Source: Candidatus Woesearchaeota archaeon (GTDB lineage: Archaea > Nanobdellota > Nanobdellia > UBA10117 > JABICX01). Taken from it: DNA of 38,205 nucleotides. Location of the stretch: contig CAZGVA010000002.1 in assembly GCA_964528765.1 (NCBI GenBank), positions 1 to 38,205 on the forward strand, in the 5' to 3' direction. A program made the translations under genes and the position numbers. The notes under the pieces are model-generated. The model was given only the letters and a program-made list of their open reading frames with translations, was not told where the DNA came from and ran no database searches. Shown piece by piece: positions 12,113-32,794 of the stretch. Each line of letters starts with the position of its first letter. Position 1 is the first letter of the stretch.

Positions 12113-12979
12113 GTGTCTGTATTGAATAAATCTTTAAATTTGCTGTTGAATTTAGAAGTAATGTTAACTGTAGATGAGATTAAGAAAATACCTTTGCTTC
12201 CTACTGAAGATGGTTTCGAAACAATTGGTATTGCAAAAAGTTATGCTTTAGGTGGTATTGTTAATTTTTGTGGTTATGATGTTACGCGTTTTACTCAAGA
12301 GGAATTAGATAAGGTAAGTGACGCTCGCTTTTTTAATCCGAGCATAACGTCTTTTGAAAATAATGATGACAGAGTTCTTGTTATTTATCGAGAATTGCGT
12401 ATGAATGAAAACCATCGTAATAAATTGACGAAGATTTTGAATGGAATCACTCATTGTTATTTTTCATCAAGTGGATTTAATAATCTAACGCCAGGAAGAT
12501 CAAGAGAATTAGTTGATGATAATAATGAACGAGTTTTAGATGAAAATCAGCAACCCAAATATGTTAATCTTTGTGGACCAAATAAATCTGCATTTGATCT
12601 AGGTCAAGAAATGAGTGCGAATTTGAAATATTTTGGGAAGGGCGGTAACAAAATGAGTTATCATGGCAAAGAATCATCCTACTTAATCGTTGAACATTTA
12701 GAAAATATTGTTGGTATTTTTAATACAAATACTGAAAATACTGTAACTTTGGAAACAAGACGTAATTTAGCTAAAGAAATGATACCCATATATACTGCAC
12801 TTGCATTATCTGAAACAATAATTGGTGAAAGTACAATGAGTGTATATAAAGAAAGAACTATTGCAGGCTTGTTAAGTAATGTTGATGCTTTTATTGAATT
12901 CGATAAATCATTAACTACACCACCAATATTTGATAAATTAAAATATGTAATTGATAAAGTAAAGGATGCTGTTTGTTAG
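12113..12979 (+). CDS. Hypothetical protein (ORFan; C-terminus ends ...KDAVC)
   Basis: An 867-nt open frame in AT-rich DNA. The track start is GTG, and ATG 12161 (MLTVDEIKK) is an alternative. No recognised domain. Confidence 0.5.
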   Translation: MSVLNKSLNLLLNLEVMLTVDEIKKIPLLPTEDGFETIGIAKSYALGGIVNFCGYDVTRFTQEELDKVSDARFFNPSITSFENNDDRVLVIYRELRMNENHRNKLTKILNGITHCYFSSSGFNNLTPGRSRELVDDNNERVLDENQQPKYVNLCGPNKSAFDLGQEMSANLKYFGKGGNKMSYHGKESSYLIVEHLENIVGIFNTNTENTVTLETRRNLAKEMIPIYTALALSETIIGESTMSVYKERTIAGLLSNVDAFIEFDKSLTTPPIFDKLKYVIDKVKDAVC

Positions 12980-13110
12980 TTATTTAATTCATTTAATGTA
13001 ATCGTTTCTAATCTTTTTTCCTATTTTTTAGTATTTTTTTACGTAATTAACCTGATTTTGTAATAGATATACTTATAAATGAATATGTATAACTACTTAT
13101 AAGTAAACTT

Positions 13111-13266
13111 ATGGTAGTTAAAGTAAAAGTTCAGGAATTTGGAAAGAATAAGCAAGTAATGGTATCTATACCACGAGCTATTGCGCAGTTACTTGGATAT
13201 AAAAAAGGAAAGACAGCTAACTGGATGTTAGAAGATGGCTTTCTTAAATTGAGGTTAGATGAATAA
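13111..13266 (+). CDS. AbrB/SpoVT (MazE/VapB-like) swapped-hairpin small DNA-binding protein, 51 aa
   Basis: Not in the ORF track because it is under 60 aa. The translation is MVVKVKVQEFGKNKQVMVSIPRAIAQLLGYKKGKTANWMLEDGFLKLRLDE. The core VSIPRAIAQLLGYKKGKTANW resembles the AbrB/SpoVT consensus (vtIPkeir..lgl..Gd.v). It overlaps the next gene by 8 nt. Confidence 0.55.
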   Translation: MVVKVKVQEFGKNKQVMVSIPRAIAQLLGYKKGKTANWMLEDGFLKLRLDE

Positions 13267-13864
13267 AATGAGAATACAAATGCGTGTAAGAACATCAGAA
13301 TACGCTCCATTAATGGATAAATTTATTCATGATAATGATAGAAAACTATATGAAACAAATCCGATAGATTGGCCAGAACCCGAAGCAATACATTTATGTT
13401 TAAATGATACACCAAAGCTTGAAGCATTTCTAAATGGAACTGAGTCTAATGTTGAACTTGGTTTTTTAGGCACATTAAATTCGTTCTCGCGCCCAAATAA
13501 ACGTGAGAATTATGAACATATAACTCGTGAACCGGGAAAAGATGTGAATTATTTTGTTGATATATTTTTTGAGATGAAAGGAATAGATACTAATGTGGAC
13601 CCTCGTCGATTAATTCCAAAGTTACCTTATTTTGTTGAATCTGGTTTTGTTGGTTTAGGTCATACACACAGAACAGGTAGTAGAATTGATTTTTCAGAAA
13701 CAGACAAAGAATTTCTGTCAGGATCATTTACGTATCGACCACACATATTATTTGCTCAGAACGAAGAGGGAAGAATTGTAGCAAACATGTACTTGCCGGG
13801 AAAAGGAACGTATCAAATTAGTCCTGAAAATATATTGTTAAAATCATTTGCAGAGGTTAGATGA
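13259..13864 (+). CDS. MPN/JAMM (JAB)-like metalloprotein, putative
   Basis: GLGHTHRTGSRIDFSETD resembles the JAMM motif HxHx7Sx2D, but with 8 residues between the second His and the Ser. A possible upstream Glu lies in PEPEAIHLCL. The call is weak and rests on this motif only. Confidence 0.4.
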   Translation: MNKMRIQMRVRTSEYAPLMDKFIHDNDRKLYETNPIDWPEPEAIHLCLNDTPKLEAFLNGTESNVELGFLGTLNSFSRPNKRENYEHITREPGKDVNYFVDIFFEMKGIDTNVDPRRLIPKLPYFVESGFVGLGHTHRTGSRIDFSETDKEFLSGSFTYRPHILFAQNEEGRIVANMYLPGKGTYQISPENILLKSFAEVR

Positions 13865-13867
13865 ATA

Positions 13868-14536
13868 ATGGTAAATGATAATCGAACCAACATTACTGAA
13901 GATCGTTTGAAGAATTTAGAAGGAATAACGCTCGAGAAAACAAAAGATAATATGCGAATGAAAGTTGATGATAAGTGGGTTTTTCCAGTTAGAAATAAGT
14001 ATATGTTTGCGCCAATTGAAGAAGATCCAATATATTTAAATATTCCAGCTCCAGCGGGAAAAGGAATACGGGTATACTTAAATGGAGAAAATTACGATCA
14101 GCTCAATGAAGAGTTAAGCAACAAATTAACAAATATTGTAGCTACAGTAAATGATGCACATGAATATGATTTTGGAGCATGTGTAAGAAAGCAAATTAAA
14201 CCTTATGAACAACAACCAGCACGGTCAAGAACAACATTAAATAAAGATATAGCAACAATGCTGGAATATGCTCCAGATATAAGTAATCCTGACGCGCCAA
14301 AAATAATTTGTACAGGTTCAACAGACTTAATTGCAGATGAATTAGAACGCGCAAATATACCTAAGTTATATTGGAAAGTAGGTAGCGCAATAAAGAAAAA
14401 TGGAATTCATCATAGTGTAGTTTTTGTATTTGATAACAAAGGCAAATGGGTTTTATTAAATGGTAAAACTCCAGCAAATAATTATACTATAATTCCAAAA
14501 TCCAGTTTAGATAATGACGTGGAGCGTGTTTGCTAA
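13868..14536 (+). CDS. Papain-fold / transglutaminase-like Cys-peptidase-like protein, putative (C-terminus ends ...ERVC)
   Basis: IICTGSTDLIADELERANIPKLYWKVG...IHHSVVFVFDNKGKWVLLNG matches the transglutaminase-core layout (C..f..l...lRa.GIPaR.v.G ... HaWvev....gW..lD). Candidate triad is Cys148, His181 or His182, and Asn198 or Asp189. Confidence 0.35.
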   Translation: MVNDNRTNITEDRLKNLEGITLEKTKDNMRMKVDDKWVFPVRNKYMFAPIEEDPIYLNIPAPAGKGIRVYLNGENYDQLNEELSNKLTNIVATVNDAHEYDFGACVRKQIKPYEQQPARSRTTLNKDIATMLEYAPDISNPDAPKIICTGSTDLIADELERANIPKLYWKVGSAIKKNGIHHSVVFVFDNKGKWVLLNGKTPANNYTIIPKSSLDNDVERVC

Positions 14537-15219
14537 TGGCAAATATTGATATATATGATGGAACTGCAACTCCGCGAGCAGGAAAACAACTTATGTATGC
14601 TCTGCAAGATTTAGCAAGGATTAGACAAAAGGAATTTCATATTTTTCCAGACCCTAGAAAATCAAATGATGAAAATACACGAAGATATAATATTGTTAAT
14701 GGCTTTGCTAATCTTAATTATTTTGAAAATAGAAATGGTAGAAATCAAGTTAATGTAGCACCCATGCCAAAACAAATGGCTGATGCTAAGGGTTTAGAAG
14801 AAATTGTAGATGTTGATAGTTTAAAAATTATTATTTTAGCTGATGATATTTTCTGCGGAGAAGAATCTAATTGGTGTATTGGTGTTGCAAATGGAGTTGA
14901 TTTGTATGATGAGCAAGGTAATTTATATGATGATAGAGACTTTTTAACTGTAACAACATATGACGCAAAGACTGATGTTCAGCTAAAAGATCGATTCTTA
15001 CATGAGCTTGGACATATTTTTGGTGCTGCTCCAAAAGGACGTTCAAATACTGAAGAATTTTTAGGACCTCACTGTATTAATGATTTGTGCGTAATGCAAC
15101 AAAGAGATACAGTGGATGGGCAAGAAGAATTAACTAGACAAAGACAAATATATCGTGCACCAACTTATTGTAATCAATGTGTTGCGGATTTAAAATCTTC
15201 TGCTAAATTTGAGAGATAA
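14536..15219 (+). CDS. amzA: Archaemetzincin-like zinc metallopeptidase (M54-like) with expanded signature
   Basis: HELGHIFG-(16 aa)-CINDLCVM-(24 aa)-CNQC follows the archaemetzincin signature HEXXHXXGX3CX4CXMX17CXXC, with two spacers lengthened. ATG 14536 overlaps the previous stop as TAATG. Confidence 0.75.
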   Translation: MANIDIYDGTATPRAGKQLMYALQDLARIRQKEFHIFPDPRKSNDENTRRYNIVNGFANLNYFENRNGRNQVNVAPMPKQMADAKGLEEIVDVDSLKIIILADDIFCGEESNWCIGVANGVDLYDEQGNLYDDRDFLTVTTYDAKTDVQLKDRFLHELGHIFGAAPKGRSNTEEFLGPHCINDLCVMQQRDTVDGQEELTRQRQIYRAPTYCNQCVADLKSSAKFER

Positions 15220-21832: not shown

Positions 21833-22453
21833 ATGGTTGAGAAATATTTCTTTGGATTTAATATTGAAAATCCTTTCAGGAGCGATATTCTAAATATTCG
21901 TTCAGATTTAATAGAAAAAGGCATAGTACGACAAAAGAAAAGATATTTTCCACACGTAACAATATATCCACAAGGTTTTAACGATGAGAAAACACTTATT
22001 AAAATATTCAAGAGTTTATCTTTCTCAGAATTTGAATTAAGCTTTACTAAAATTTATATGAAGCAGTTCTCGAAAAAAATACTTTATTTAGAAGTAAAAA
22101 TTACACCCCAAATACAGAAAATACATAACATTTTTCTTGATAAATTCGCATCTTTGCGTAATAATGCTTTAGCACAAACTATTCTTCAAGAAAAATCAGA
22201 CATGTCTGATAAAAATATCGCACTAATTGAGAAGTACGGTTATCCTTATTGTAGAGACCAATATAGACCACATATAACTTTAGGAACATTCAATGACCTG
22301 AACAAATTGAAAATTGCTACGAAAGCATTTAGCAATATTGAAATTCCAGAATTTTTGTTGATTAAAGAAATAATTTTATTCAAATATAATGAAAAAAATG
22401 ATTTATGGGAAGAGTTAGATAAAATAAAATTAAGTGCCCCCAACGAGATTTGA
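21833..22453 (+). CDS. 2H phosphoesterase (LigT/ThpR-like RNA 2',3'-cyclic phosphodiesterase / 2'-5' RNA ligase family)
   Basis: Two HxT motifs with appropriate spacing: PHVTIYP and PHITLGT. The last 18 nt overlap tRNA-Glu on the opposite strand. Confidence 0.7.
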   Translation: MVEKYFFGFNIENPFRSDILNIRSDLIEKGIVRQKKRYFPHVTIYPQGFNDEKTLIKIFKSLSFSEFELSFTKIYMKQFSKKILYLEVKITPQIQKIHNIFLDKFASLRNNALAQTILQEKSDMSDKNIALIEKYGYPYCRDQYRPHITLGTFNDLNKLKIATKAFSNIEIPEFLLIKEIILFKYNEKNDLWEELDKIKLSAPNEI

Positions 22454-22509
22454 ACTCGTGTCCTCAGGTCGAGAACCTGAGATGATTGGCCGGACTACAC
22501 CATAGGGGC
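22435..22509 (-). tRNA. tRNA-Glu (anticodon CUC)
   Basis: Minus strand reads GCCCCTA-TG-GTGTAGTCCGGCCAATCAT-C-TCAGG-TTCTCGA-CCTGA-GGAC-ACGAG-TTCAAAT-CTCGT-TGGGGGC-A. The D-arm GTGTAGTCCGGCCAATCAT is typical of archaeal tRNA-Glu. No CCA is encoded. Confidence 0.9.
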
Positions 22510-22637
22510 CTGAGTAATTGCTTTGTTTTTTGTTTATAAACTTTTTTAAGAAATGTAGCGTTTTATAATAAGTGAATATTCCTAATAAGTAGTGACGTTA
22601 TCAAAAGTTTTTTAAAGGTATCTTTTTACTTACCAAG

Positions 22638-24329
22638 ATGACAATAAAACAACCAAACGCAGATAATACTATTGAACTAGAACAGCTAGCAAAACCTTTT
22701 GATGTATCTATGGAGTCCGGTAAATATGATACACTTATTAGTACAAACTTAGAATTTCTTCGAGGAACTGTTGAAAGAATCGAAAAAACACATGCTAGTG
22801 AAATTTCACCAGTTGATTCTAATCTTATGGCGTATTATGAAGGTGTTCGTGATAGCGATCGTAGCACACTAAAACCGTTTGAAATACAAACTATTGACGG
22901 TATTGAATCACAAATTCGGGGAGCTAAAACTTTTAACTTATTGGGTGAAGTAAAACGTCAAATTAGTACTGGAGATATTATATCAAGTTATTCAAGTTTG
23001 ATTGAATTAGCTAAAATTTTACCAAACGTAGAATCTGTTGAAGGAAATCAAACATATTCACCTGAAAAAATTGTAATTACTGTCGCAGACGTAGTTTCAC
23101 AAATTCCACCATCTAGACCTGGAAAACCAACACTTGTTAATATTCTTGTTAAGGACCCAAGTTGCTTAGCACAAAATGTTGAATTAAGTAATGAATTTGT
23201 AAGAGAGTTACTTGATAATTATGCAGTAGGTGCTTCTAGATCACGTAAAATCAATGGCGTAAATAATGGATTCAGTCAAGGTGTAATCTCTAAATATAGA
23301 TATGCAATTAAAAAATTACGTAAAGAATTACCTATATCTGACATTGATGAACAATCAATTTTAGCTGGATTACAAAGTAATTATACAATATTTGAATCAG
23401 AACTTAAACAAATTAACTTATCTCTAGAAGAAAAATTATCTTCAGGACAAAATATATCTAAAAGTTTGAGAAAATTACTTGGTGAAGTTGGTAGAGAAAA
23501 TCCATTAGAACAATCTCAAGAAATAATTGAATATGCAATTGGACATATGAATAGTGTACATGATTTAATTACACAAGCATCACGTATAGCGAAAGTGGAT
23601 AGTCCTGTAAGTGCAATTGATGAAATTGTTATACCTCAAAAACCCGTTGTTCAAAAAGAAAAAATTTCATATGGTGGGCCGTTAGTTTCGTTTGAAAGTC
23701 CAGTAGCTGAATATGATTGGAAAAAAGTCCAAACAAATCGAGATGAAGATAATCCTCTAGGATATTATGATATCGATGTTCCAATATCTGTATCTGTTCC
23801 CGTTAAAGAAGATGAAATTAGACGATTAGAATCAATTAATCAACGAAATAAAAAACAAGCTATGGGAGAAGTTAAAGGAATTCGTGCAAGACAGCAAAAT
23901 GATGCAGAATTTACTGTTGAATATTTAACTAGCGAATTAAATCAAATATCTAATCAATTATTTGGTGTTGATATTAATGAAGATTTAACTAAACATATTT
24001 TTGAAAGTGGAATTGAGAGAATGTCACCAAAAACTAGATCCTTGGAAGTAAAAATTAGCTCATTAAGATCGTATGTTAATGTCACTGAAATAAATAATAT
24101 GTTGAAAAAACAAGTTGCGGGAGAAACTGAAAGTATTTATTTTAATGCATTTGTTAAAGATATGGATGAGCGAAATCAAACATCTAGACTTGAAGCTGCA
24201 ATGTTGCTTGCTATCTCAGGAAGTAAAATTTTAGCAGATGGTGGAGAACTTACATCAGATAATGATGAAGTATGTTTAACTGTAAATGAAGCTATTGCTG
24301 ATTTGTTTAATATGAATGGAGCTGAATAA
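22638..24329 (+). CDS. Hypothetical protein (563 aa ORFan)
   Basis: A 1.7-kb open frame in AT-rich DNA. No TM segment, signal peptide or catalytic motif recognised. It appears largely helical and charged. Confidence 0.6.
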   Translation: MTIKQPNADNTIELEQLAKPFDVSMESGKYDTLISTNLEFLRGTVERIEKTHASEISPVDSNLMAYYEGVRDSDRSTLKPFEIQTIDGIESQIRGAKTFNLLGEVKRQISTGDIISSYSSLIELAKILPNVESVEGNQTYSPEKIVITVADVVSQIPPSRPGKPTLVNILVKDPSCLAQNVELSNEFVRELLDNYAVGASRSRKINGVNNGFSQGVISKYRYAIKKLRKELPISDIDEQSILAGLQSNYTIFESELKQINLSLEEKLSSGQNISKSLRKLLGEVGRENPLEQSQEIIEYAIGHMNSVHDLITQASRIAKVDSPVSAIDEIVIPQKPVVQKEKISYGGPLVSFESPVAEYDWKKVQTNRDEDNPLGYYDIDVPISVSVPVKEDEIRRLESINQRNKKQAMGEVKGIRARQQNDAEFTVEYLTSELNQISNQLFGVDINEDLTKHIFESGIERMSPKTRSLEVKISSLRSYVNVTEINNMLKKQVAGETESIYFNAFVKDMDERNQTSRLEAAMLLAISGSKILADGGELTSDNDEVCLTVNEAIADLFNMNGAE

Positions 24330-24331
24330 AT

Positions 24332-25516
24332 ATGAGTAATGGAAACAATTCTTATATTGCACACCATGTTAATCTTTGGAATAAAGGTGGAAAAGTTTTA
24401 AGTGGATTAACTTTTAAAAACGGTGGTCGTACATCTAAAAAATCAAAAATGAATCCTTGGCAGTATGTGTTAACTTTAAATCAATCTGGTTGGGATGTTG
24501 ATTTTTCTGGAGTTAGACGTGAAGATATTGCTAGAAAAAAACATGTTCCAGATTTACTTAAATTTTATATGTTAGAACATGGAATTATTTTCAAAGAAAT
24601 TGTAGCTCGTTTTGAGGGAGCAGTTAAAACTTCTGGAAGTGTTCGTCCAGTAAGCGAAATGATTGAATCCATTGGTGGATATGGTTCTTTTGGCCATAAA
24701 AAACAATTGTTTAACTCGCCAATTGGACGTAAGAGAGAGCATCGTAGTTTTTTGGAATATATTGGGGCCAATGAGTTATTTGATACGGTTAAAACAAAAC
24801 CTGAATTTACTAAAAGACATTTTATTGAAACAATTATTTTTCCGTTAAGAGAAAGTTGTAATTTTATGGGTTTAATTGACAGACCAACCGATAAAGATTC
24901 AAGAATTTACGTAAGACACACTACTGATGAAGGAGAGATTGTAACATTAAAAACTGATGCAAATGGTACTGATATATATGAAATTAATTTACCTGCTGCG
25001 CGATTAGATGACATGCGTAAAAGAAACACAAACACCTATGGAAAGTTTGCAAAGAGATATGGTAATATACCCGTTTTACCGGATAACCGTACAGGATTAC
25101 ATTTATCTAAAGTAACAACTAGTTGGGAAGATACAGTAAATTTCTTAAGAAAATCTGGTTTAAATCAGCCAATTAATTATTGGCAAGATTGCAATTTGCC
25201 AATTGCTCCCACAGATGTACTAAAATCTAAAACTCGTGCAGAAGAAGGTTATATTTCACTTGTATTTAGAACTCCCGTTGAAAACGAAACAGCAGTTATT
25301 AAAATAAATCGAGATACACTTGGTATGGAGTATCTCTTAGATGATAGCGTTATGAGTTCAGAACAATTTAGTTTACAGTTAATGAGTAATTTTTTTGCTA
25401 ATGTTATTGAACCATCTAAATTGTTCAAAACAACTTCAGACGCAGTTCAAGAAAGAGTCAGAAAGATGTCAACGTTAGAATCAAGATTACCTGCGTATAT
25501 GGGTAACGGTAAATAA
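24332..25516 (+). CDS. Hypothetical protein (394 aa ORFan)
   Basis: The open frame starts 2 nt after the upstream stop. It has a basic N-terminal patch (GGRTSKKSKMNPW). No motif recognised. Confidence 0.6.
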   Translation: MSNGNNSYIAHHVNLWNKGGKVLSGLTFKNGGRTSKKSKMNPWQYVLTLNQSGWDVDFSGVRREDIARKKHVPDLLKFYMLEHGIIFKEIVARFEGAVKTSGSVRPVSEMIESIGGYGSFGHKKQLFNSPIGRKREHRSFLEYIGANELFDTVKTKPEFTKRHFIETIIFPLRESCNFMGLIDRPTDKDSRIYVRHTTDEGEIVTLKTDANGTDIYEINLPAARLDDMRKRNTNTYGKFAKRYGNIPVLPDNRTGLHLSKVTTSWEDTVNFLRKSGLNQPINYWQDCNLPIAPTDVLKSKTRAEEGYISLVFRTPVENETAVIKINRDTLGMEYLLDDSVMSSEQFSLQLMSNFFANVIEPSKLFKTTSDAVQERVRKMSTLESRLPAYMGNGK

Positions 25517-27376
25517 TTATTTTTCAAAAAATTCTTGTATTTTATCACCAAAATAATCTGTTATTTGTGGATTCCAATCAGGAGGTATTATTGTAGCATA
25601 TCTGTTCCAAGAAAATCTTTTATCGAGAAATGCAATTATACCTCGATCTTTTTCACTTCGAATACATCGACCTGCTGCTTGTAGTGCTTTATTCATCGCG
25701 GGAAAAGTATATCCATATTCCCAACCTTTACCAAAATTATTTTGATAATAAGCAATAACTGCTTTACAAGTTAAATCTGGCGGTGCAAGAGGAACACCAA
25801 CAATACCCACGGCTTTAAGTAATTCTCCAGGTAAATCAATACCTTCTGAAAAACTTGCACCTTGTACGCCAATAAGTGCACCACCCCCATTTAGTAAATT
25901 TTGTTTAAATTTTGCGATTAATTCAGAGCGTTCAGATTTTTTCATTCCACGAACCTCGACAAAAAGTTCTTTTTCAGCAATATTCGTTAAGTAAAACATA
26001 GTTTTACTCAAAACATCATATGACGAGAAAAATATTGCCGAATTACCTTGTACATTGTTGATAATATATGCGCAAGATGCAGCAATTTTTTTGAACATTT
26101 GTTCATTACGTTCTTCGTATTTAGTTGTTATATTTGATGAAATAAGGACTAAACGATTTTTATCAGGAAATGGATTTTTATATATTTTGATTAAAGTATC
26201 TGTATTTAATCCTAGAATATCTCGATACATTTCACCTGGAACCAGTGTTCCCGACATTAGTATTGAAGAGTGCGCAGTATCAAAAACTCTTTGTGATAAA
26301 GCACCAGGATGCAAGCAATTATATTCAACGGATATAAATGGACGACCTCCTTTGGTTTTTTCTCTACGTAATATTCGTATAAAACCTTCTTCATCATTTA
26401 ACCAACTTTTCAGAAAATTAACAAAATATGTTAAATTATCTCCTTGATCAGGATCTTCGATATCGTCAATGGTGTCTTCAAATGAACTAACTACCTCATC
26501 ATATTTATTTTCAGAAGCTACTTCTACAATATCAATAAAATCTTTTTTTGAGATTTTTACTTCGTTTGATGCGTGCAATGCTTGATCAGCAAACATCTTA
26601 AGACGATTTGATATATCCTTTAACATAATATCTGTGTCATTAAAAACATCATTTTTTAACTCATCAGCTAATCGACTTAATGCAAAAGTATTGGTTTTAT
26701 GTGTTAGTAAATTTCGTACACGATTTGGAAGATTGTGTGCTTCATCAACAATAATAATTGATTGAGTGATATCTTTTTTTATCTTAGATAAAAAGAATTT
26801 TCGAACCTTTGGGCTAAATAAGTGATAATAATCCCCAATAATTACTTCTGCTTGTTGGGCCATTCGCATTGAAATTTCATATGAACAAAATTTTCCATAA
26901 CATAGCGAAACAACGTCTTCAACATTAAGTGGACCTTTTTTAAATAGTGTTTCAACAAAAGCGTCTGCATCATCAGTATATTCATTTTTTTTAAGAGTTT
27001 TAGTAATCAGTTTGCATTCTCCTTTTTTTCTTTGCGAAATACAAAATTCCATAAAACCAGGTACATCATAATCAGACATATGTGGGCACATATTTTTTTT
27101 ACCAACAAAATCAACTGCTTTTATTTTATGTTTTTTGTTTATTTCTTGTAATGTTTTTATAATCATATTATGTTGGGTATTTCGGGAAGTTAGAAAAAAG
27201 ATAGTTACACCTTTTTCAATAGCATATTCAAGTGCAGGTGTTAATGCAGCAGCAGTTTTACCCAAACCAGTGGGTGCATGCGCAATAAGATTTTTTCCAT
27301 TTTCAATTGCTTCTTTGATATCAGTCATTAATTTGTTTTGTTCAGGTCTAACTTTATCAAATGGAAAAATTTGCAT
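25517..27376 (-). CDS. xpd: XPD/Rad3-family (DinG-like) 5'-3' DNA helicase
   Basis: Walker A AHAPTGLGKT and DEAH box IIVDEAHNL. A Cys cluster compatible with a 4Fe-4S domain (CPHM...FCISQRKKGECKL...CYGKFC). C-terminal helicase motifs GGALIGVQGASFSEGID and QAAGRCIR. Confidence 0.85.
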   Translation of the reverse strand: MQIFPFDKVRPEQNKLMTDIKEAIENGKNLIAHAPTGLGKTAAALTPALEYAIEKGVTIFFLTSRNTQHNMIIKTLQEINKKHKIKAVDFVGKKNMCPHMSDYDVPGFMEFCISQRKKGECKLITKTLKKNEYTDDADAFVETLFKKGPLNVEDVVSLCYGKFCSYEISMRMAQQAEVIIGDYYHLFSPKVRKFFLSKIKKDITQSIIIVDEAHNLPNRVRNLLTHKTNTFALSRLADELKNDVFNDTDIMLKDISNRLKMFADQALHASNEVKISKKDFIDIVEVASENKYDEVVSSFEDTIDDIEDPDQGDNLTYFVNFLKSWLNDEEGFIRILRREKTKGGRPFISVEYNCLHPGALSQRVFDTAHSSILMSGTLVPGEMYRDILGLNTDTLIKIYKNPFPDKNRLVLISSNITTKYEERNEQMFKKIAASCAYIINNVQGNSAIFFSSYDVLSKTMFYLTNIAEKELFVEVRGMKKSERSELIAKFKQNLLNGGGALIGVQGASFSEGIDLPGELLKAVGIVGVPLAPPDLTCKAVIAYYQNNFGKGWEYGYTFPAMNKALQAAGRCIRSEKDRGIIAFLDKRFSWNRYATIIPPDWNPQITDYFGDKIQEFFEK

Positions 27377-27488: not shown

Positions 27489-27797
27489 ATGGGCAAACCT
27501 GTTTTAGTTTCTGGAAATCCTAATTTACTTTATGTAAAAAACTTACTAGCTGCACTGGACAAAAAAGGAATTCCAGTAGAACAAAAGAAGCCTGATTTTA
27601 ATAATGGTTCTAAAGTAATTGTTATTACTCGTTTAGATGATGTACTAGATTTTAATAGCACAGATTGGAGTAAATCAGATACACCTCGACCGAGAGTGTA
27701 CGCATTTGGTCAAATAATGTATCATGCAGATGGTTATTTTCCACCCGGCGATGTTGATAGGCTAGCTGAACAAATCGATCAAGATTTAAAAACATAA
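27489..27797 (+). CDS. Hypothetical protein (102 aa)
   Basis: Open frame only. No motif recognised. Confidence 0.4.
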   Translation: MGKPVLVSGNPNLLYVKNLLAALDKKGIPVEQKKPDFNNGSKVIVITRLDDVLDFNSTDWSKSDTPRPRVYAFGQIMYHADGYFPPGDVDRLAEQIDQDLKT

Positions 27798-27880: not shown

Positions 27881-28411
27881 ATGGAACATGATTTTACTAA
27901 AATTGATAATGATTTTATAACTAGTCTTGAAATAGATCAAGCCAAATATGAGGAGTTTACAGCAAAATATGTGACTAAAGTTAATACCGAACTTGTAAAA
28001 GCAGGCGGTATTGAAGTAGTACTTACTGATTTTTTAATGCTACCACCAATGGTATCAAACAAAAACGATTTGTATGAAATGATGGAAGAAACAAAAGAAA
28101 GCACAGAGATCGGTCAACATTCTAAAGAGCAAATAGATAAATCAATCGATTTTTTGGTTAGTAAAAATATATTAATCGAATCATCAACAGAAGGAAATGA
28201 TGTATCTTATAAAATAAATCCATTACATCTTAAATTGTTGGGCACAGGGTATGGAGTACTTATGAAATATTTTTTTGATGGTACAATGAACTTTGATAAA
28301 GCACACCCATTTGAAATGAAAATGCCAGATGGGGAAGTTAAACAGGGTTTTATATGTAAAACTTGGCAGGAATATGCTAAGCAAATTAATCTTGAAGCGA
28401 TGAAATTATAA
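27881..28411 (+). CDS. Hypothetical protein (176 aa), possible winged-helix segment
   Basis: An open frame. The stretch IDKSIDFLVSKNILIESSTEGNDVSYKIN resembles a recognition helix plus wing. The assignment is weak. Confidence 0.4.
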   Translation: MEHDFTKIDNDFITSLEIDQAKYEEFTAKYVTKVNTELVKAGGIEVVLTDFLMLPPMVSNKNDLYEMMEETKESTEIGQHSKEQIDKSIDFLVSKNILIESSTEGNDVSYKINPLHLKLLGTGYGVLMKYFFDGTMNFDKAHPFEMKMPDGEVKQGFICKTWQEYAKQINLEAMKL

Positions 28412-30153: not shown

Positions 30154-31050
30154 ATGAGAGACAAAGTGTATACGTCATCGGTGTGTAACATACCGCCGTG
30201 CGAAAAACTTCGTAATGTACTTTATGTAGAATTACAAAACGGATGCCCAAAAAAATGTAATTATTGTAAATCTTATCAAGGAATTCCTTTCAAAAATCAC
30301 GCGCTTTCCGCTGTTGAGAACAATACAGATATTGTGTTGAATGTTCTTGAAAATCGATTTAGTGTTATACATGGATCATCTGATGCTGAAGCAATTGATC
30401 GAGTTTATTTGGGAGGTTCAGATATCTTATTGTATCCATATGATGATCTAAAATGCGCAGTAAAAAACATTCAGACCAAATTGCATGAAAAAAATAACAA
30501 AATCAGAAAAATTAGTGGATATACGACGATTAAAAGCTTAAAGCAAATGTCAAAAAAGAAGCTTTCAGATTTGAATAATTTGGGAATAAATGTGTTATAC
30601 ATTGGTGTTGAGTCTGGATCAACTAATGTCTTAAATTTAGCTAATAAGGGAGACACAAAAGAAGATATAATATCTGTTGCAGATAAACTCCGTGATTTAG
30701 ATTTTATGCTTTCTGTAAACATCATGCCGGGACTCGGTAATATTCAGTATTATTATGAGCACATCGTAGATAGTGTGGATGTGCTTGTTGAACTAGCTCC
30801 AAAATGGATAACGTTTCTTTCATTAGATCCTACTGAAACAAAATATGATGAGATAGTTCGAGAAGAGGATAATCGATATTTGACTTCAGACGAGTTAGTT
30901 AGTCAAGCTAGAGCAATTTTATCTGGTTTGGAAGAGAAATTCCGATCAGATTCGCCATGTTTGGTAGCTGCATACTCTAATGAGGTCACAAGTATATGTG
31001 ACAATAACTTTATATTTAGAAGTCACATTGGAGGTAATAAAAATGACTAA
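30154..31050 (+). CDS. Radical SAM domain protein
   Basis: The CxxxCxxC cluster motif is in ELQNGCPKKCNYCKSY. A downstream Elp3-type core reads INVLYIGVESGSTNVL...VNIMPGLG. Confidence 0.7.
   Translation: MRDKVYTSSVCNIPPCEKLRNVLYVELQNGCPKKCNYCKSYQGIPFKNHALSAVENNTDIVLNVLENRFSVIHGSSDAEAIDRVYLGGSDILLYPYDDLKCAVKNIQTKLHEKNNKIRKISGYTTIKSLKQMSKKKLSDLNNLGINVLYIGVESGSTNVLNLANKGDTKEDIISVADKLRDLDFMLSVNIMPGLGNIQYYYEHIVDSVDVLVELAPKWITFLSLDPTETKYDEIVREEDNRYLTSDELVSQARAILSGLEEKFRSDSPCLVAAYSNEVTSICDNNFIFRSHIGGNKND
31030..31035 (+). promoter_or_regulatory. Shine-Dalgarno-like GGAGGT inside the 3' end of the radical SAM gene
   Basis: The ggaggt lies 7 nt upstream of ATG 31043, consistent with translational coupling. 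Confidence 0.4.
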
Positions 31051-32794
31051 AGCAATATTCGCGTTTACAGGTGATCCGCCAACACTCGGGCATAAAGACA
31101 TAGTTAATCGAGCGTCAAAGATGTTTGATTCAGTAATGGTAGGTATTGGAGCTAATCCATGTAAAACACCATTATTTAGTTTAGAAGAACGACTCCAAAT
31201 GTCTCGAGAAACATTTAAAGATATTCCAAATGCGAGCGTAGATTTTTTTGATGGTCTTTTAGTCGATTATGCTGTGGAGCAGGGTGCAAATGTTATTGTT
31301 CGGGGTGCGAGAAATTCACAAGATTTTGACGATGAAAAAACTTTACATCGAATAGGTCAGAGTCAATCTGATGTTGATACAGCAATCTTATTTGCAAGCT
31401 CAGAATTTGAACAGGTTAGTTCGACTTCAGTTAAAGCACTGCAAGTAGAAAATGGAAACATACGTGCACAGGTTTCATTGAATGTAAAGCAAGCGCTTGA
31501 AGCGAGATTATCTGGCCAGTACATGGTTGGGATTACTGGAACAATTGGAACTGGAAAATCATATGTTGCAGACAAATTAGTTGAAATCGGTAAAGAACGT
31601 TTTGTTGAAGTTCATAATGTTGATCTGGATAAATTAGGCCATTATATTTTAAGTAATTCTCCAGAACCTATTTACAAAAATGCTAGGGCGAAAATTATTG
31701 ATACGTTTGGTGCAGAAGTTTCAAATAAAAATGGAACAATTGATCGAAACTCACTAGGTAAAATTGTGTTCCAAGACAAAGAAAAATTAGCACAACTCGA
31801 TGAGATAATGTATGAACCAATCATGCTTAGATTAAAATATGAACTTAGAGGGAAAAAAGGAATTATTTTGATTAATGGCGCGTTACTTGCTGAAAATAAA
31901 TTATCTTACCTTTCAAATAATAATGCGATTTTAGTAGGTGTTGACGAAGAGGTTCACCACAAAAGATTGAATGCACGTGGTTTGACTCATGCAGGAATTG
32001 AGAAAAGATTGGCGAGTCAGCTAAGTACTGACGAAAAAAAAGATCAATTGGAAACACAAATTTCAAAAGATCAATACGGAAAAATTTTTGAATATAATAA
32101 TTCTGAGACTGGCGGACAAGGAGTTTACGCATTGTTCGAAGAATTGATTAAGGAAATAGATGTTTATGGTGAGTTAAGATTCAAGAGCACATGGGATAAT
32201 GTGCATGCTAACGGATCTGCAGATGAAGTGTATCGAAGTCTTGTTAAGAAATACTCTGAACCGCATCGACATTACCATAATCTTCAACATGTCATGTTAG
32301 GTTTGGGAACAATTGGTCGAAATAAAGAGAATTTCGAAGAGTTAGATTTGGCTACACTTTCTTGGTTTTTCCACGATGCAATCTATGATATCTTTGCAAA
32401 AGACAATGAACAAAAAAGCGGAGAATTGTTCTATAAGACATTCAAGGATGCAGGACTGCCAGAAGATTTTCTTCAGAAAGGTTATGATTTGATTGTTGGA
32501 ACTGAACATGCAGGTGGACTGGAGACAAACGACCAGCAACTTTTAGCAGACGTTGATTTGGCAGGATTAGCAAACCCTCCAGAATTATTTGATAATTATT
32601 CTAGATTGATTGAGCAAGAATATACTACTCGGACAAGTGTATCTAAGGTAGATTTTAAAGCAGGTAGACAAGCATTTCTTGAAATGTTCTTAGCTAAACC
32701 AAATATTTACTCAACTAATAAACTGAGAGATTTATATGAATCAAAAGCTAGAAGCAATATGGAACGAGAACTAACTCAGTTGGTTTCAGAATGA
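31043..32794 (+). CDS. Triple fusion: bacterial-type phosphopantetheine adenylyltransferase (CoaD), dephospho-CoA kinase (CoaE) and a C-terminal HD-type phosphohydrolase-like domain
   Basis: CoaD: AIFAFTGDPPTLGHKDIVNRASKMFDSVMVGIGANPCKTPLFSLEERL...GANVIVRGARNSQDFDDE. CoaE: VGITGTIGTGKSYVADKL. C-terminus: YSEPHRHYHNLQHV...WFFHDAIYD, the HD pattern of COG4339-like hydrolases. ATG 31043 overlaps the radical SAM stop as ATGACTAA. Confidence 0.8.
   Translation: MTKAIFAFTGDPPTLGHKDIVNRASKMFDSVMVGIGANPCKTPLFSLEERLQMSRETFKDIPNASVDFFDGLLVDYAVEQGANVIVRGARNSQDFDDEKTLHRIGQSQSDVDTAILFASSEFEQVSSTSVKALQVENGNIRAQVSLNVKQALEARLSGQYMVGITGTIGTGKSYVADKLVEIGKERFVEVHNVDLDKLGHYILSNSPEPIYKNARAKIIDTFGAEVSNKNGTIDRNSLGKIVFQDKEKLAQLDEIMYEPIMLRLKYELRGKKGIILINGALLAENKLSYLSNNNAILVGVDEEVHHKRLNARGLTHAGIEKRLASQLSTDEKKDQLETQISKDQYGKIFEYNNSETGGQGVYALFEELIKEIDVYGELRFKSTWDNVHANGSADEVYRSLVKKYSEPHRHYHNLQHVMLGLGTIGRNKENFEELDLATLSWFFHDAIYDIFAKDNEQKSGELFYKTFKDAGLPEDFLQKGYDLIVGTEHAGGLETNDQQLLADVDLAGLANPPELFDNYSRLIEQEYTTRTSVSKVDFKAGRQAFLEMFLAKPNIYSTNKLRDLYESKARSNMERELTQLVSE

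Follow-up and report, generated by a model that had tools for sequence, protein, structure and literature searches.

Two large adjacent genes, here called ORF1 and ORF2, form a genuine, tightly coupled pair between a tRNA-Glu gene and an XPD helicase gene in the window (the whole analysed stretch of 38,205 nucleotides). We assign a probability of roughly 55% to the reading that the pair is a genuine two-gene operon among the flexible, strain-specific genes of a DPANN-like salt-lake archaeon with a small genome, gained on the branch of that organism and encoding proteins that would act together. ORF1 (22638..24329, plus strand) encodes 563 amino acids and ORF2 (24332..25516, plus strand) encodes 394, each from an ATG start, and 2 nt separate the ORF1 stop codon from the ORF2 start codon. 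The segment that holds them is bounded on the left by tRNA-Glu(CTC) (22434..22509, minus strand; Rfam tRNA, 53.7 bits) and on the right by the convergent XPD gene (25517..27376, minus strand; DEAD_2, HBB and Helicase_C_2 domains), whose stop codon directly abuts that of ORF2 with no gap. It measures 3.0 kb from the XPD stop codon to the tRNA-Glu promoter. The layout described in a first-pass annotation of this DNA, with the pair beside the tRNA gene and against XPD, is borne out by these coordinates.

Both frames are real coding genes rather than chance openings, as the first-pass annotation had argued from their length. With a stop probability of 0.086 per codon, stop-free frames of 563 and 394 codons have P = 8e-23 and 3.5e-16, respectively, and in 2000 first-order Markov shuffles of the region no stop-free stretch exceeded 207 codons (median 91). 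Codon usage agrees with this, since a positive fit to the genome is confined to the annotated frames: ORF1 scored 0.378 and ORF2 0.324, whereas the shifted frames ranged from -0.23 to -0.06. Among 674 ORFs of the genome, these values place ORF1 at the 98.7th percentile and ORF2 at the 80.6th, and the GC3 of ORF1 is 0.112. The full-length relatives of ORF2 described below lead to the same conclusion.

Candidate expression signals surround and connect the two genes. An A/T-rich, TATA-box-like element (22608..22616, plus strand) is centred ~26 nt before the ORF1 ATG; we take it to be a candidate promoter by the archaeal promoter consensus, and transcription from it would yield a leaderless or near-leaderless mRNA. 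Within the last codons of ORF1 lies GGAGCTGA (24318..24325, plus strand). Its GGAG core stops 10 nt short of the ORF2 start codon, and the motif is Shine-Dalgarno-like by its letters alone, the 3' end of the organism's own 16S rRNA not being found in the assembly. Across the genome, such tetramers precede 17.6% of 681 ORFs, compared with 7.9% at a control offset. A run of five T residues (25520..25524, plus strand), a candidate archaeal oligo-T terminator, starts 4 nt past the ORF2 stop codon and lies within the final codons of XPD, which is encoded on the opposite strand. The pair thus combines what an operon is recognised by, namely a common strand, minimal spacing and a candidate ribosome-binding signal for the second gene inside the first. 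ORF1 and ORF2 are probably translationally coupled, and we infer that they are co-transcribed.

When 1.84 billion proteins were searched exhaustively with HMMER, two full-length relatives of ORF2 were recovered, both from metagenome assemblies. The first, P0003 (393 aa; contig of 1406 bp), shares 38% identity with ORF2 (E = 4e-61), and the second, P0004 (389 aa; contig of 3902 bp), shares 32% (E = 7e-55). The alignment of the three proteins spans residues 1-388 of the 394 in ORF2 and contains 80 invariant columns, with the strongest motif at residues 159-173. The relatives resemble ORF2 in length, in this central motif and in a basic, Gly-rich N-terminal stretch, which in ORF2 is rich in Gly, Lys and Arg and carries a net charge of +7 over residues 16-45 (whole-protein pI 9.4). 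The alignment indicates that ORF2 is part of an undescribed family that is conserved but very rare, with three representatives in 1.84 billion proteins. The family alignment matched nothing in genome, metagenome or viral contigs, and inspection of the conserved core by eye revealed no conserved (D/E)xK of the PD-(D/E)xK-like kind.

ORF1 differs from its partner in being acidic (pI 4.9, net charge -22) and is predicted to be mostly helical. A variant in another assembly is identical at 560 of 563 positions. Word-based searches, run with the whole protein and with residues 335-450 alone, returned only ORF1 itself, and neither the scans of viral and metagenome contigs nor tblastn against phage and plasmid sequences gave a match. 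One protein among 400 genomes of the class (G276; 441 aa, coiled-coil-like) matched ORF1 with 27% identity over 90 residues at a per-genome E of 0.00137; as ~0.5 such matches are expected across 400 genomes, we judged it a chance match. Relatives of ORF1 were sought by word-based and genome-sample searches, the exhaustive HMMER search having been run on ORF2 alone; since the word-based search overlooked both relatives of ORF2, ORF1 may have undetected relatives too. The term ORFan, applied to both proteins in the first-pass annotation, therefore holds for ORF1 within the word-based and genome-sample searches, but ORF2, with two relatives at 32-38% identity, is on these matches not a strict ORFan.

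The other protein-level claims of that annotation, namely that the two proteins lack a known family, a membrane segment and a recognisable catalytic motif, stood up well. Neither protein matched Pfam, NCBIfam, PHROGs, PADLOC or PDB sequences, and neither was matched in phage and plasmid records. The maximum Kyte-Doolittle mean over 19 residues is ~1.0 in each, no membrane segment was found, and both products look soluble and cytoplasmic. Neither contains internal repeats, the two show no mutual similarity, and they have neither paralogues in their own genome nor similarity to ORFs at the syntenic loci. Structure prediction gave unusable models, with single-sequence AlphaFold2 mean pLDDT values of 33.6 for ORF1 and 33.8 for ORF2 and Atlas models at 0.37-0.39. 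The predicted ORF1-ORF2 complex, computed from a three-row alignment, scored 0.00 against a mark of 0.32. The literature search on the pair returned only general background.

We found neither gene in any of 40 relatives, in agreement with the claim that the pair is lineage-specific; these include two genomes of the same genus, G001 and G002, whose completeness of 88% and 77% limits how firmly absence can be called. Two genomes of a neighbouring genus also lack the pair. The wider search was equally negative: the pair was not found in 400-genome samples of the class and of the phylum, the ORF2 profile matched none of 38 genomes of the order and none of the 400 sampled from either the class or the phylum, and a scan of genome contigs for the XPD locus gave no match. 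In G001 the gene order is YgjP-XPD-tRNA-Glu, with the tRNA only 24 nt past the XPD stop codon, so that the two genes that are 3.0 kb apart in the source genome (G000) are adjacent there. The BRE/TATA-like stretch upstream of tRNA-Glu (~22526-22545) is conserved between the two genomes. Taken together, these comparisons indicate that ORF1 and ORF2 are accessory and lineage-specific.

The pair is large, yet it is not exceptional, because strain-specificity extends to the remaining unassigned ORFs of the window: all four of those tested are missing from the five closest genomes, as is a LigT-like gene on the far side of tRNA-Glu. Overall, 14 of the 39 ORFs in the window lack a Pfam match, and ORF1 and ORF2 stand out among them by size (563 and 394 aa, compared with 101-288 aa for the others) and by their organisation as a coupled operon. 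Strain-specificity is ordinary in this window. Ten shared genes form a collinear backbone that measures 29.2 kb in G000 and 13.2 kb in G002; among the extra segments of G000 are ordinary genes, for example Ham1, glutamate dehydrogenase and CoaE.

We infer that the direction of change was gain. The XPD proteins of G001 and G002 are 79% identical to each other, whereas either is 68-69% identical to that of G000, and the neighbouring genus also lacks the pair, so that a single gain explains the pattern more simply than two losses would. The pair would thus have been gained between XPD and tRNA-Glu on the branch of the source organism. The opposite direction, in which the ancestor of the genus or family already carried the pair, which was passed on vertically and then lost by reductive evolution in the more streamlined relatives, seems to us possible but doubtful. 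It fits the size of G000 (0.95 Mb at 85.5% completeness, compared with ~0.7 Mb for G001 and ~0.6 Mb for G002), the longer backbone and the fully native GC and codon usage of the two genes, as well as the lack of an integrase and of a flanking repeat; moreover, the ordinary metabolic genes among the extras of G000 are explained equally well by loss in the relatives, which is a point against gain. However, it requires at least two losses, in the ancestor of G001 and G002 and in the neighbouring genus, and it sits poorly with the absence of the ORF2 profile from the sampled genomes of class and phylum and with a patchily distributed family whose only relatives of ORF2 are 32-38% identical to it.

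The location beside a tRNA gene brings to mind genomic islands and integrative elements, and the pair could be residual cargo from a virus, plasmid or integrative element inserted by tRNA-Glu, whose recombination genes have since been lost. The segment adjoins the tRNA and is missing in a congener, each of the two genomes carries a further gene beyond the same tRNA (the LigT-like gene, found only in G000, and a different, unassigned 360-aa gene in G001), and the ORF2 family is patchy. An Atlas feature search, to be taken as a lead only given its low feature count, also placed ORF2 nearest to tailed-phage clusters (score 0.87-0.90). Nevertheless, of the usual marks of an island we found only presence and absence at one site. 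No recombinase domain, integrase or transposase was detected among the 37 window ORFs scanned, and both tyrosine recombinases of the genome (PF00589) sit on other contigs (C15 and C3). Neither an att-like direct repeat nor a repeat pair flanks 22510-25516; the junction alignment yielded just ~9 nt of AT-rich resemblance, possibly a remnant of the XPD end, upstream of the tRNA. Integration usually targets the 3' side of a tRNA gene, but this insert, only 3 kb in length, sits on the 5' side, where the promoter is. Searches of PHROGs, viral contigs and phage and plasmid records gave no match. Composition is native as well: GC is 0.309 in ORF1 and 0.324 in ORF2, around the genome ORF mean of 0.317, and neither GC nor codon usage shows a sign of recent import. 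The GC and codon comparison proposed in the first-pass annotation as a check for recent acquisition accordingly gives no sign of it, and we regard an origin as mobile-element cargo as unlikely.

Least probable is that the two proteins, or one of them, belong to a known family with a housekeeping or defence role and have diverged beyond recognition by sequence methods. High divergence is common among DPANN proteins, and each of the two had one weak lead. For ORF1, this was AbiQ in PADLOC (E = 0.0039, 15.5 bits), with no stretch of the protein passing. For ORF2, it was RNA polymerase Rpb2 domain 2 (PF04561), suggested by Atlas feature neighbours annotated RNA_pol_Rpb2_2 at a score of 0.90, where the 102-117 shared features of 256 fall within the range expected by chance; this domain is not listed at E <= 1 in Pfam for any of the three family members. 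The ORF2 profile was also without a match in NCBIfam, PADLOC and PDB sequences (best E = 0.52 for the last), and neither ORF2 nor P0003 nor P0004 was assigned a PADLOC family. The relatives without the pair have small genomes that nonetheless work, which argues that the pair is not essential.

If the pair was gained, as we favour, its source would have had a similarly AT-rich composition, or the gain would be old enough for codon usage to have adjusted. With regard to function, we propose with low confidence that an acidic, helical ORF1 works with a basic, possibly nucleic-acid-binding ORF2. The two proteins may act as a complex in which the basic N-terminus and the conserved core of ORF2 would make contact with nucleic acid, with ORF1 as a helical scaffold or a regulator; nucleic-acid binding is suggested by charge alone, in an organism whose whole proteome is basic (median pI 8.3). 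Maintenance of, or protection against, foreign DNA or RNA would be conceivable roles, as would RNA handling. The first-pass annotation had offered host interaction or defence as examples, and this suggestion gained nothing from our searches, as PADLOC returned no significant match and both proteins look cytoplasmic. A bolder version, in which a basic protein of an undescribed family and its acidic, helical partner make up a new two-protein system that spreads by horizontal transfer between AT-rich ultrasmall archaea or their viruses and works on nucleic acid in defence, counter-defence or element maintenance, appears improbable to us.

The favoured reading, an operon of the flexible gene set, places the pair among the lineage-specific hypothetical proteins of DPANN archaea, which it resembles through the large unassigned share of its surroundings. 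Strain-specific genes are numerous in genomes of this kind, and the pair is an unremarkable case. In one study, 35.9% and 37.0% of the proteins of two cultivated nanohaloarchaea are given as hypothetical (PMC10266531). The pair is of modest practical value. With it, the “dark matter” of the genomes of ultrasmall archaea grows by one accessory operon that is well delimited and clearly real, and a new, tiny protein family is defined, which comprises ORF2 and the two relatives recovered from 1.84 billion representative proteins. Compared with its congeners, G000 has many additional genes lying between the conserved genes of the backbone, a pattern that bears on gene gain and loss in reduced archaeal genomes. 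The stretch itself is contained in three sequencing runs from three studies, all of salt-lake DNA, with no RNA run listed; one contains 0.98 of the sampled words and may be the source, and the other two contain small pieces of the stretch that show no differences.

The two large reading frames between tRNA-Glu(CTC) (22434-22509, minus strand) and an XPD-type helicase gene (25517-27376, minus strand; DEAD_2, HBB and Helicase_C_2 domains) are a real, coupled, strain-specific gene pair whose function is not assigned; we consider the observation sound and its interpretation partly supported. ORF1 (22638-24329, plus strand, 563 aa) and ORF2 (24332-25516, plus strand, 394 aa) both start with ATG and lie exactly where the first-pass annotation had placed them. 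The compact layout it described was also confirmed: 2 nt separate the ORF1 stop from the ORF2 start, the tRNA gene lies on one side, and on the other the stop codons of ORF2 and XPD touch with zero gap. The two frames are not due to chance, in agreement with the earlier view that they were unlikely to be non-coding. If each codon has a 0.086 probability of being a stop, P is 8e-23 for 563 open codons in a row and 3.5e-16 for 394; the longest stop-free run in 2000 shuffles of the region was 207 codons, and the codon-preference score was positive in the annotated frames only.

Reading the sequence around the pair yielded three plus-strand candidates that we take to be expression signals on the basis of archaeal consensus sequences. 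About 26 nt upstream of the ORF1 ATG lies the center of an A/T-rich, TATA-like element, a position that would give a leaderless ORF1 message; a Shine-Dalgarno-like GGAGCTGA lies within the end of ORF1, with its GGAG core ending 10 nt before the ORF2 ATG; and a T5 run begins 4 nt past the ORF2 stop codon. Such Shine-Dalgarno-like tetramers are about twice as common upstream of ORFs in the host genome as at a control offset (17.6% vs. 7.9%, n = 681); no 16S 3' end was recovered from the assembly.

Both proteins had been described as large, unassignable ORFans. The absence of a known family was upheld, as all matches to ORF1 and ORF2 fell below significance in Pfam (best E = 0.37 and 0.18), PHROGs (0.17 and 0.037) and PDB sequences (1.2 for each), NCBIfam returned nothing for either, and PADLOC returned AbiQ alone for ORF1, at 15.5 bits and with no stretch passing. 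In a word-indexed search of 5.8 billion proteins, each matched only itself. An exhaustive HMMER search of 1.84 billion proteins with ORF2 recovered two further representatives from metagenome assemblies, P0003 (393 aa, 38% identity, E = 4e-61) and P0004 (389 aa, 32% identity, E = 7e-55). The three proteins can be aligned along their whole length, 80 columns being invariant, and share a basic, glycine-rich N-terminal stretch and a strongly conserved central motif at ORF2 residues 159-173; searches with their family profile against PDB sequences, Pfam, PHROGs, PADLOC and NCBIfam gave no match. Judged by this alignment, ORF2 is a conserved protein that founds a new, tiny and hitherto undescribed family. 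Since full-length relatives exist, ORF2 is not a strict ORFan; the label stands for ORF1 as far as the word-based search goes, and because that search missed the ORF2 relatives, its blank does not prove that ORF1 lacks relatives. Other assemblies contain nearly identical copies of the two proteins (393 of 394 residues for ORF2, 560 of 563 for ORF1). One such ORF1 variant, P0006, differs solely at three consecutive residues, 40-42 (window ~22755-22763), as would result from a short, compensated change of frame or from a difference between assemblies.

Six-frame searches of 40 relatives recovered neither ORF1 nor ORF2; among those searched were two congeneric genomes, of 88% and 77% completeness, and three from the same family. 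Likewise, the ORF2 profile had no match among 38 genomes from the order, nor in class and phylum samples of 400 genomes apiece; these sets overlap. A marginal ORF1 match among 400 class genomes was rejected as chance. Scans of phage and plasmid records and of viral, genome and metagenome contigs revealed nothing for the pair.

Comparison with the same-genus genomes, G001 and G002, bears on how the pair came to be there. In G001, the order is YgjP, XPD and tRNA-Glu(CTC), with the tRNA beginning 24 nt past the XPD stop codon, which itself sits within the TATA-like box of the tRNA promoter (contig L003, 2426-2528). The host keeps these genes in the same order and orientation, with XPD and the tRNA separated by a 3.0-kb segment that bears ORF2 and ORF1; the sequence directly upstream of tRNA-Glu is conserved in both genomes. 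In XPD, G001 and G002 share 79% identity, whereas each shares 68-69% with the host. Because the two are closer to each other and the pair was not found in the neighboring genus, a single gain on the host branch is simpler than two losses, as judged from one gene and incomplete genomes. Recent acquisition, raised by the first-pass annotation, found no support: GC content (0.309 for ORF1, 0.324 for ORF2) is native, as is codon fit, which places the two at the 98.7th and 80.6th percentiles among 674 ORFs, the window carries no recombinase gene (both PF00589 matches of the genome are on other contigs), and no repeats were found flanking the segment, its junction alignment giving only a short AT-rich resemblance. 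Recent or classical insertion is therefore disfavored.

Reductive loss from the relatives, rather than gain in the host, is nonetheless a serious rival to a single gain. Between 7888 and 37070, ten backbone genes (S15, RIO-like kinase, thioredoxin-reductase-like, FAD-binding, pseudouridine synthase, XPD, YgjP, a 183-aa protein, adenylate kinase and Dus) are collinear with a 19-kb stretch of G002 (contig L007, 5714-18929), spanning 29.2 kb in the host vs. 13.2 kb; the host thus has extra segments at most backbone junctions, partly unassigned ORFs and partly ordinary metabolic genes. This pattern is compatible with loss in the relatives and also with repeated gain in the host, and we therefore retain loss as a rival. 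The pseudouridine synthase gene has opposite orientations in the host and in G002.

Within its own genome, the strain-specificity of the pair is not very unusual. Fourteen of the 39 window ORFs of at least 90 aa taken as genes have no Pfam match, and the unassigned ORFs at 27489-27797, 27881-28411, 12113-12979 and 13868-14536 were found in none of the five closest genomes. The first two, of 102 and 176 aa on the plus strand, separate YgjP from XPD at a position where G001 has only 44 nt, and the 176-aa ORF is back-to-back with the YgjP stop (TAATTA), a zero-gap junction like that of ORF2 and XPD. The other two belong to four consecutive plus-strand ORFs without Pfam matches (12113-15219; 288, 201, 222 and 229 aa), which may be another strain-specific block. 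A LigT-like 2H phosphoesterase (PF13563, PF02834; 21833-22453) shares 20 nt with the tRNA-Glu 3' end but lies on the other strand. It too was missing from the five closest genomes, and its family occurred only in the host among five genomes searched, so strain-specific genes lie on both sides of the tRNA. In G001, a 360-aa ORF without a Pfam match (L003, 2534-3616) converges on the tRNA-Glu 3' end. The tRNA-Glu neighborhood is variable within the genus.

ORF1 is acidic (pI 4.9, net charge -22) and, in a low-confidence model, largely helical, its short middle part being rich in strands; ORF2 is basic (pI 9.4), with a net charge of +7 over residues 16-45. The proteins are dissimilar, neither contains internal repeats or membrane segments, and no usable model of either protein or of their complex was obtained. 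With low confidence, and from charge, gene coupling and family conservation only, we propose that the two products may assemble into a complex in which ORF2 would touch nucleic acid and ORF1 would act as its scaffold or regulator. A surface role is less likely, as no secretion signal or membrane segment was recognized in either protein; roles in defense or host interaction are neither supported nor excluded. The literature provided general background only, and our finding no paper on the pair carries little weight, the pair having no name. One study reports hypothetical proteins at 35.9% and 37.0% in two cultivated nanohaloarchaea, and genomic islands as common among DPANN genomes (PMC10266531). 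As matters stand, the pair is of modest interest.

The window is otherwise ordinary archaeal chromosome, encoding ProRS, a proteasome subunit, the FttA termination factor, the ribosomal proteins S3Ae and S15, adenylate kinase, Dus and others. A 604-aa protein (30980-32794) has both a cytidylyltransferase-like and a dephospho-CoA kinase (CoaE) domain, and its gene shares 71 nt with the radical-SAM gene that precedes it. The assembly comprises 0.95 Mb in 78 contigs (85.5% complete), with a coding GC of ~32% and a proteome that is not acidic (median pI 8.3, 551 ORFs). Three salt-lake metagenome DNA runs contain the stretch. A contig from one, X1, joins 22628 to 27296, omitting ORF1, ORF2 and most of XPD; this junction is unreliable, its shorter side being 21 letters. 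In X1 and another run, X3, contig depth is raised and identical loose ends occur up to 24942 and 27821 (window 24676-24942 and 27821), where both stop, the former within the most conserved part of ORF2; this extra depth may represent a second, related sequence from another organism of the same lakes.
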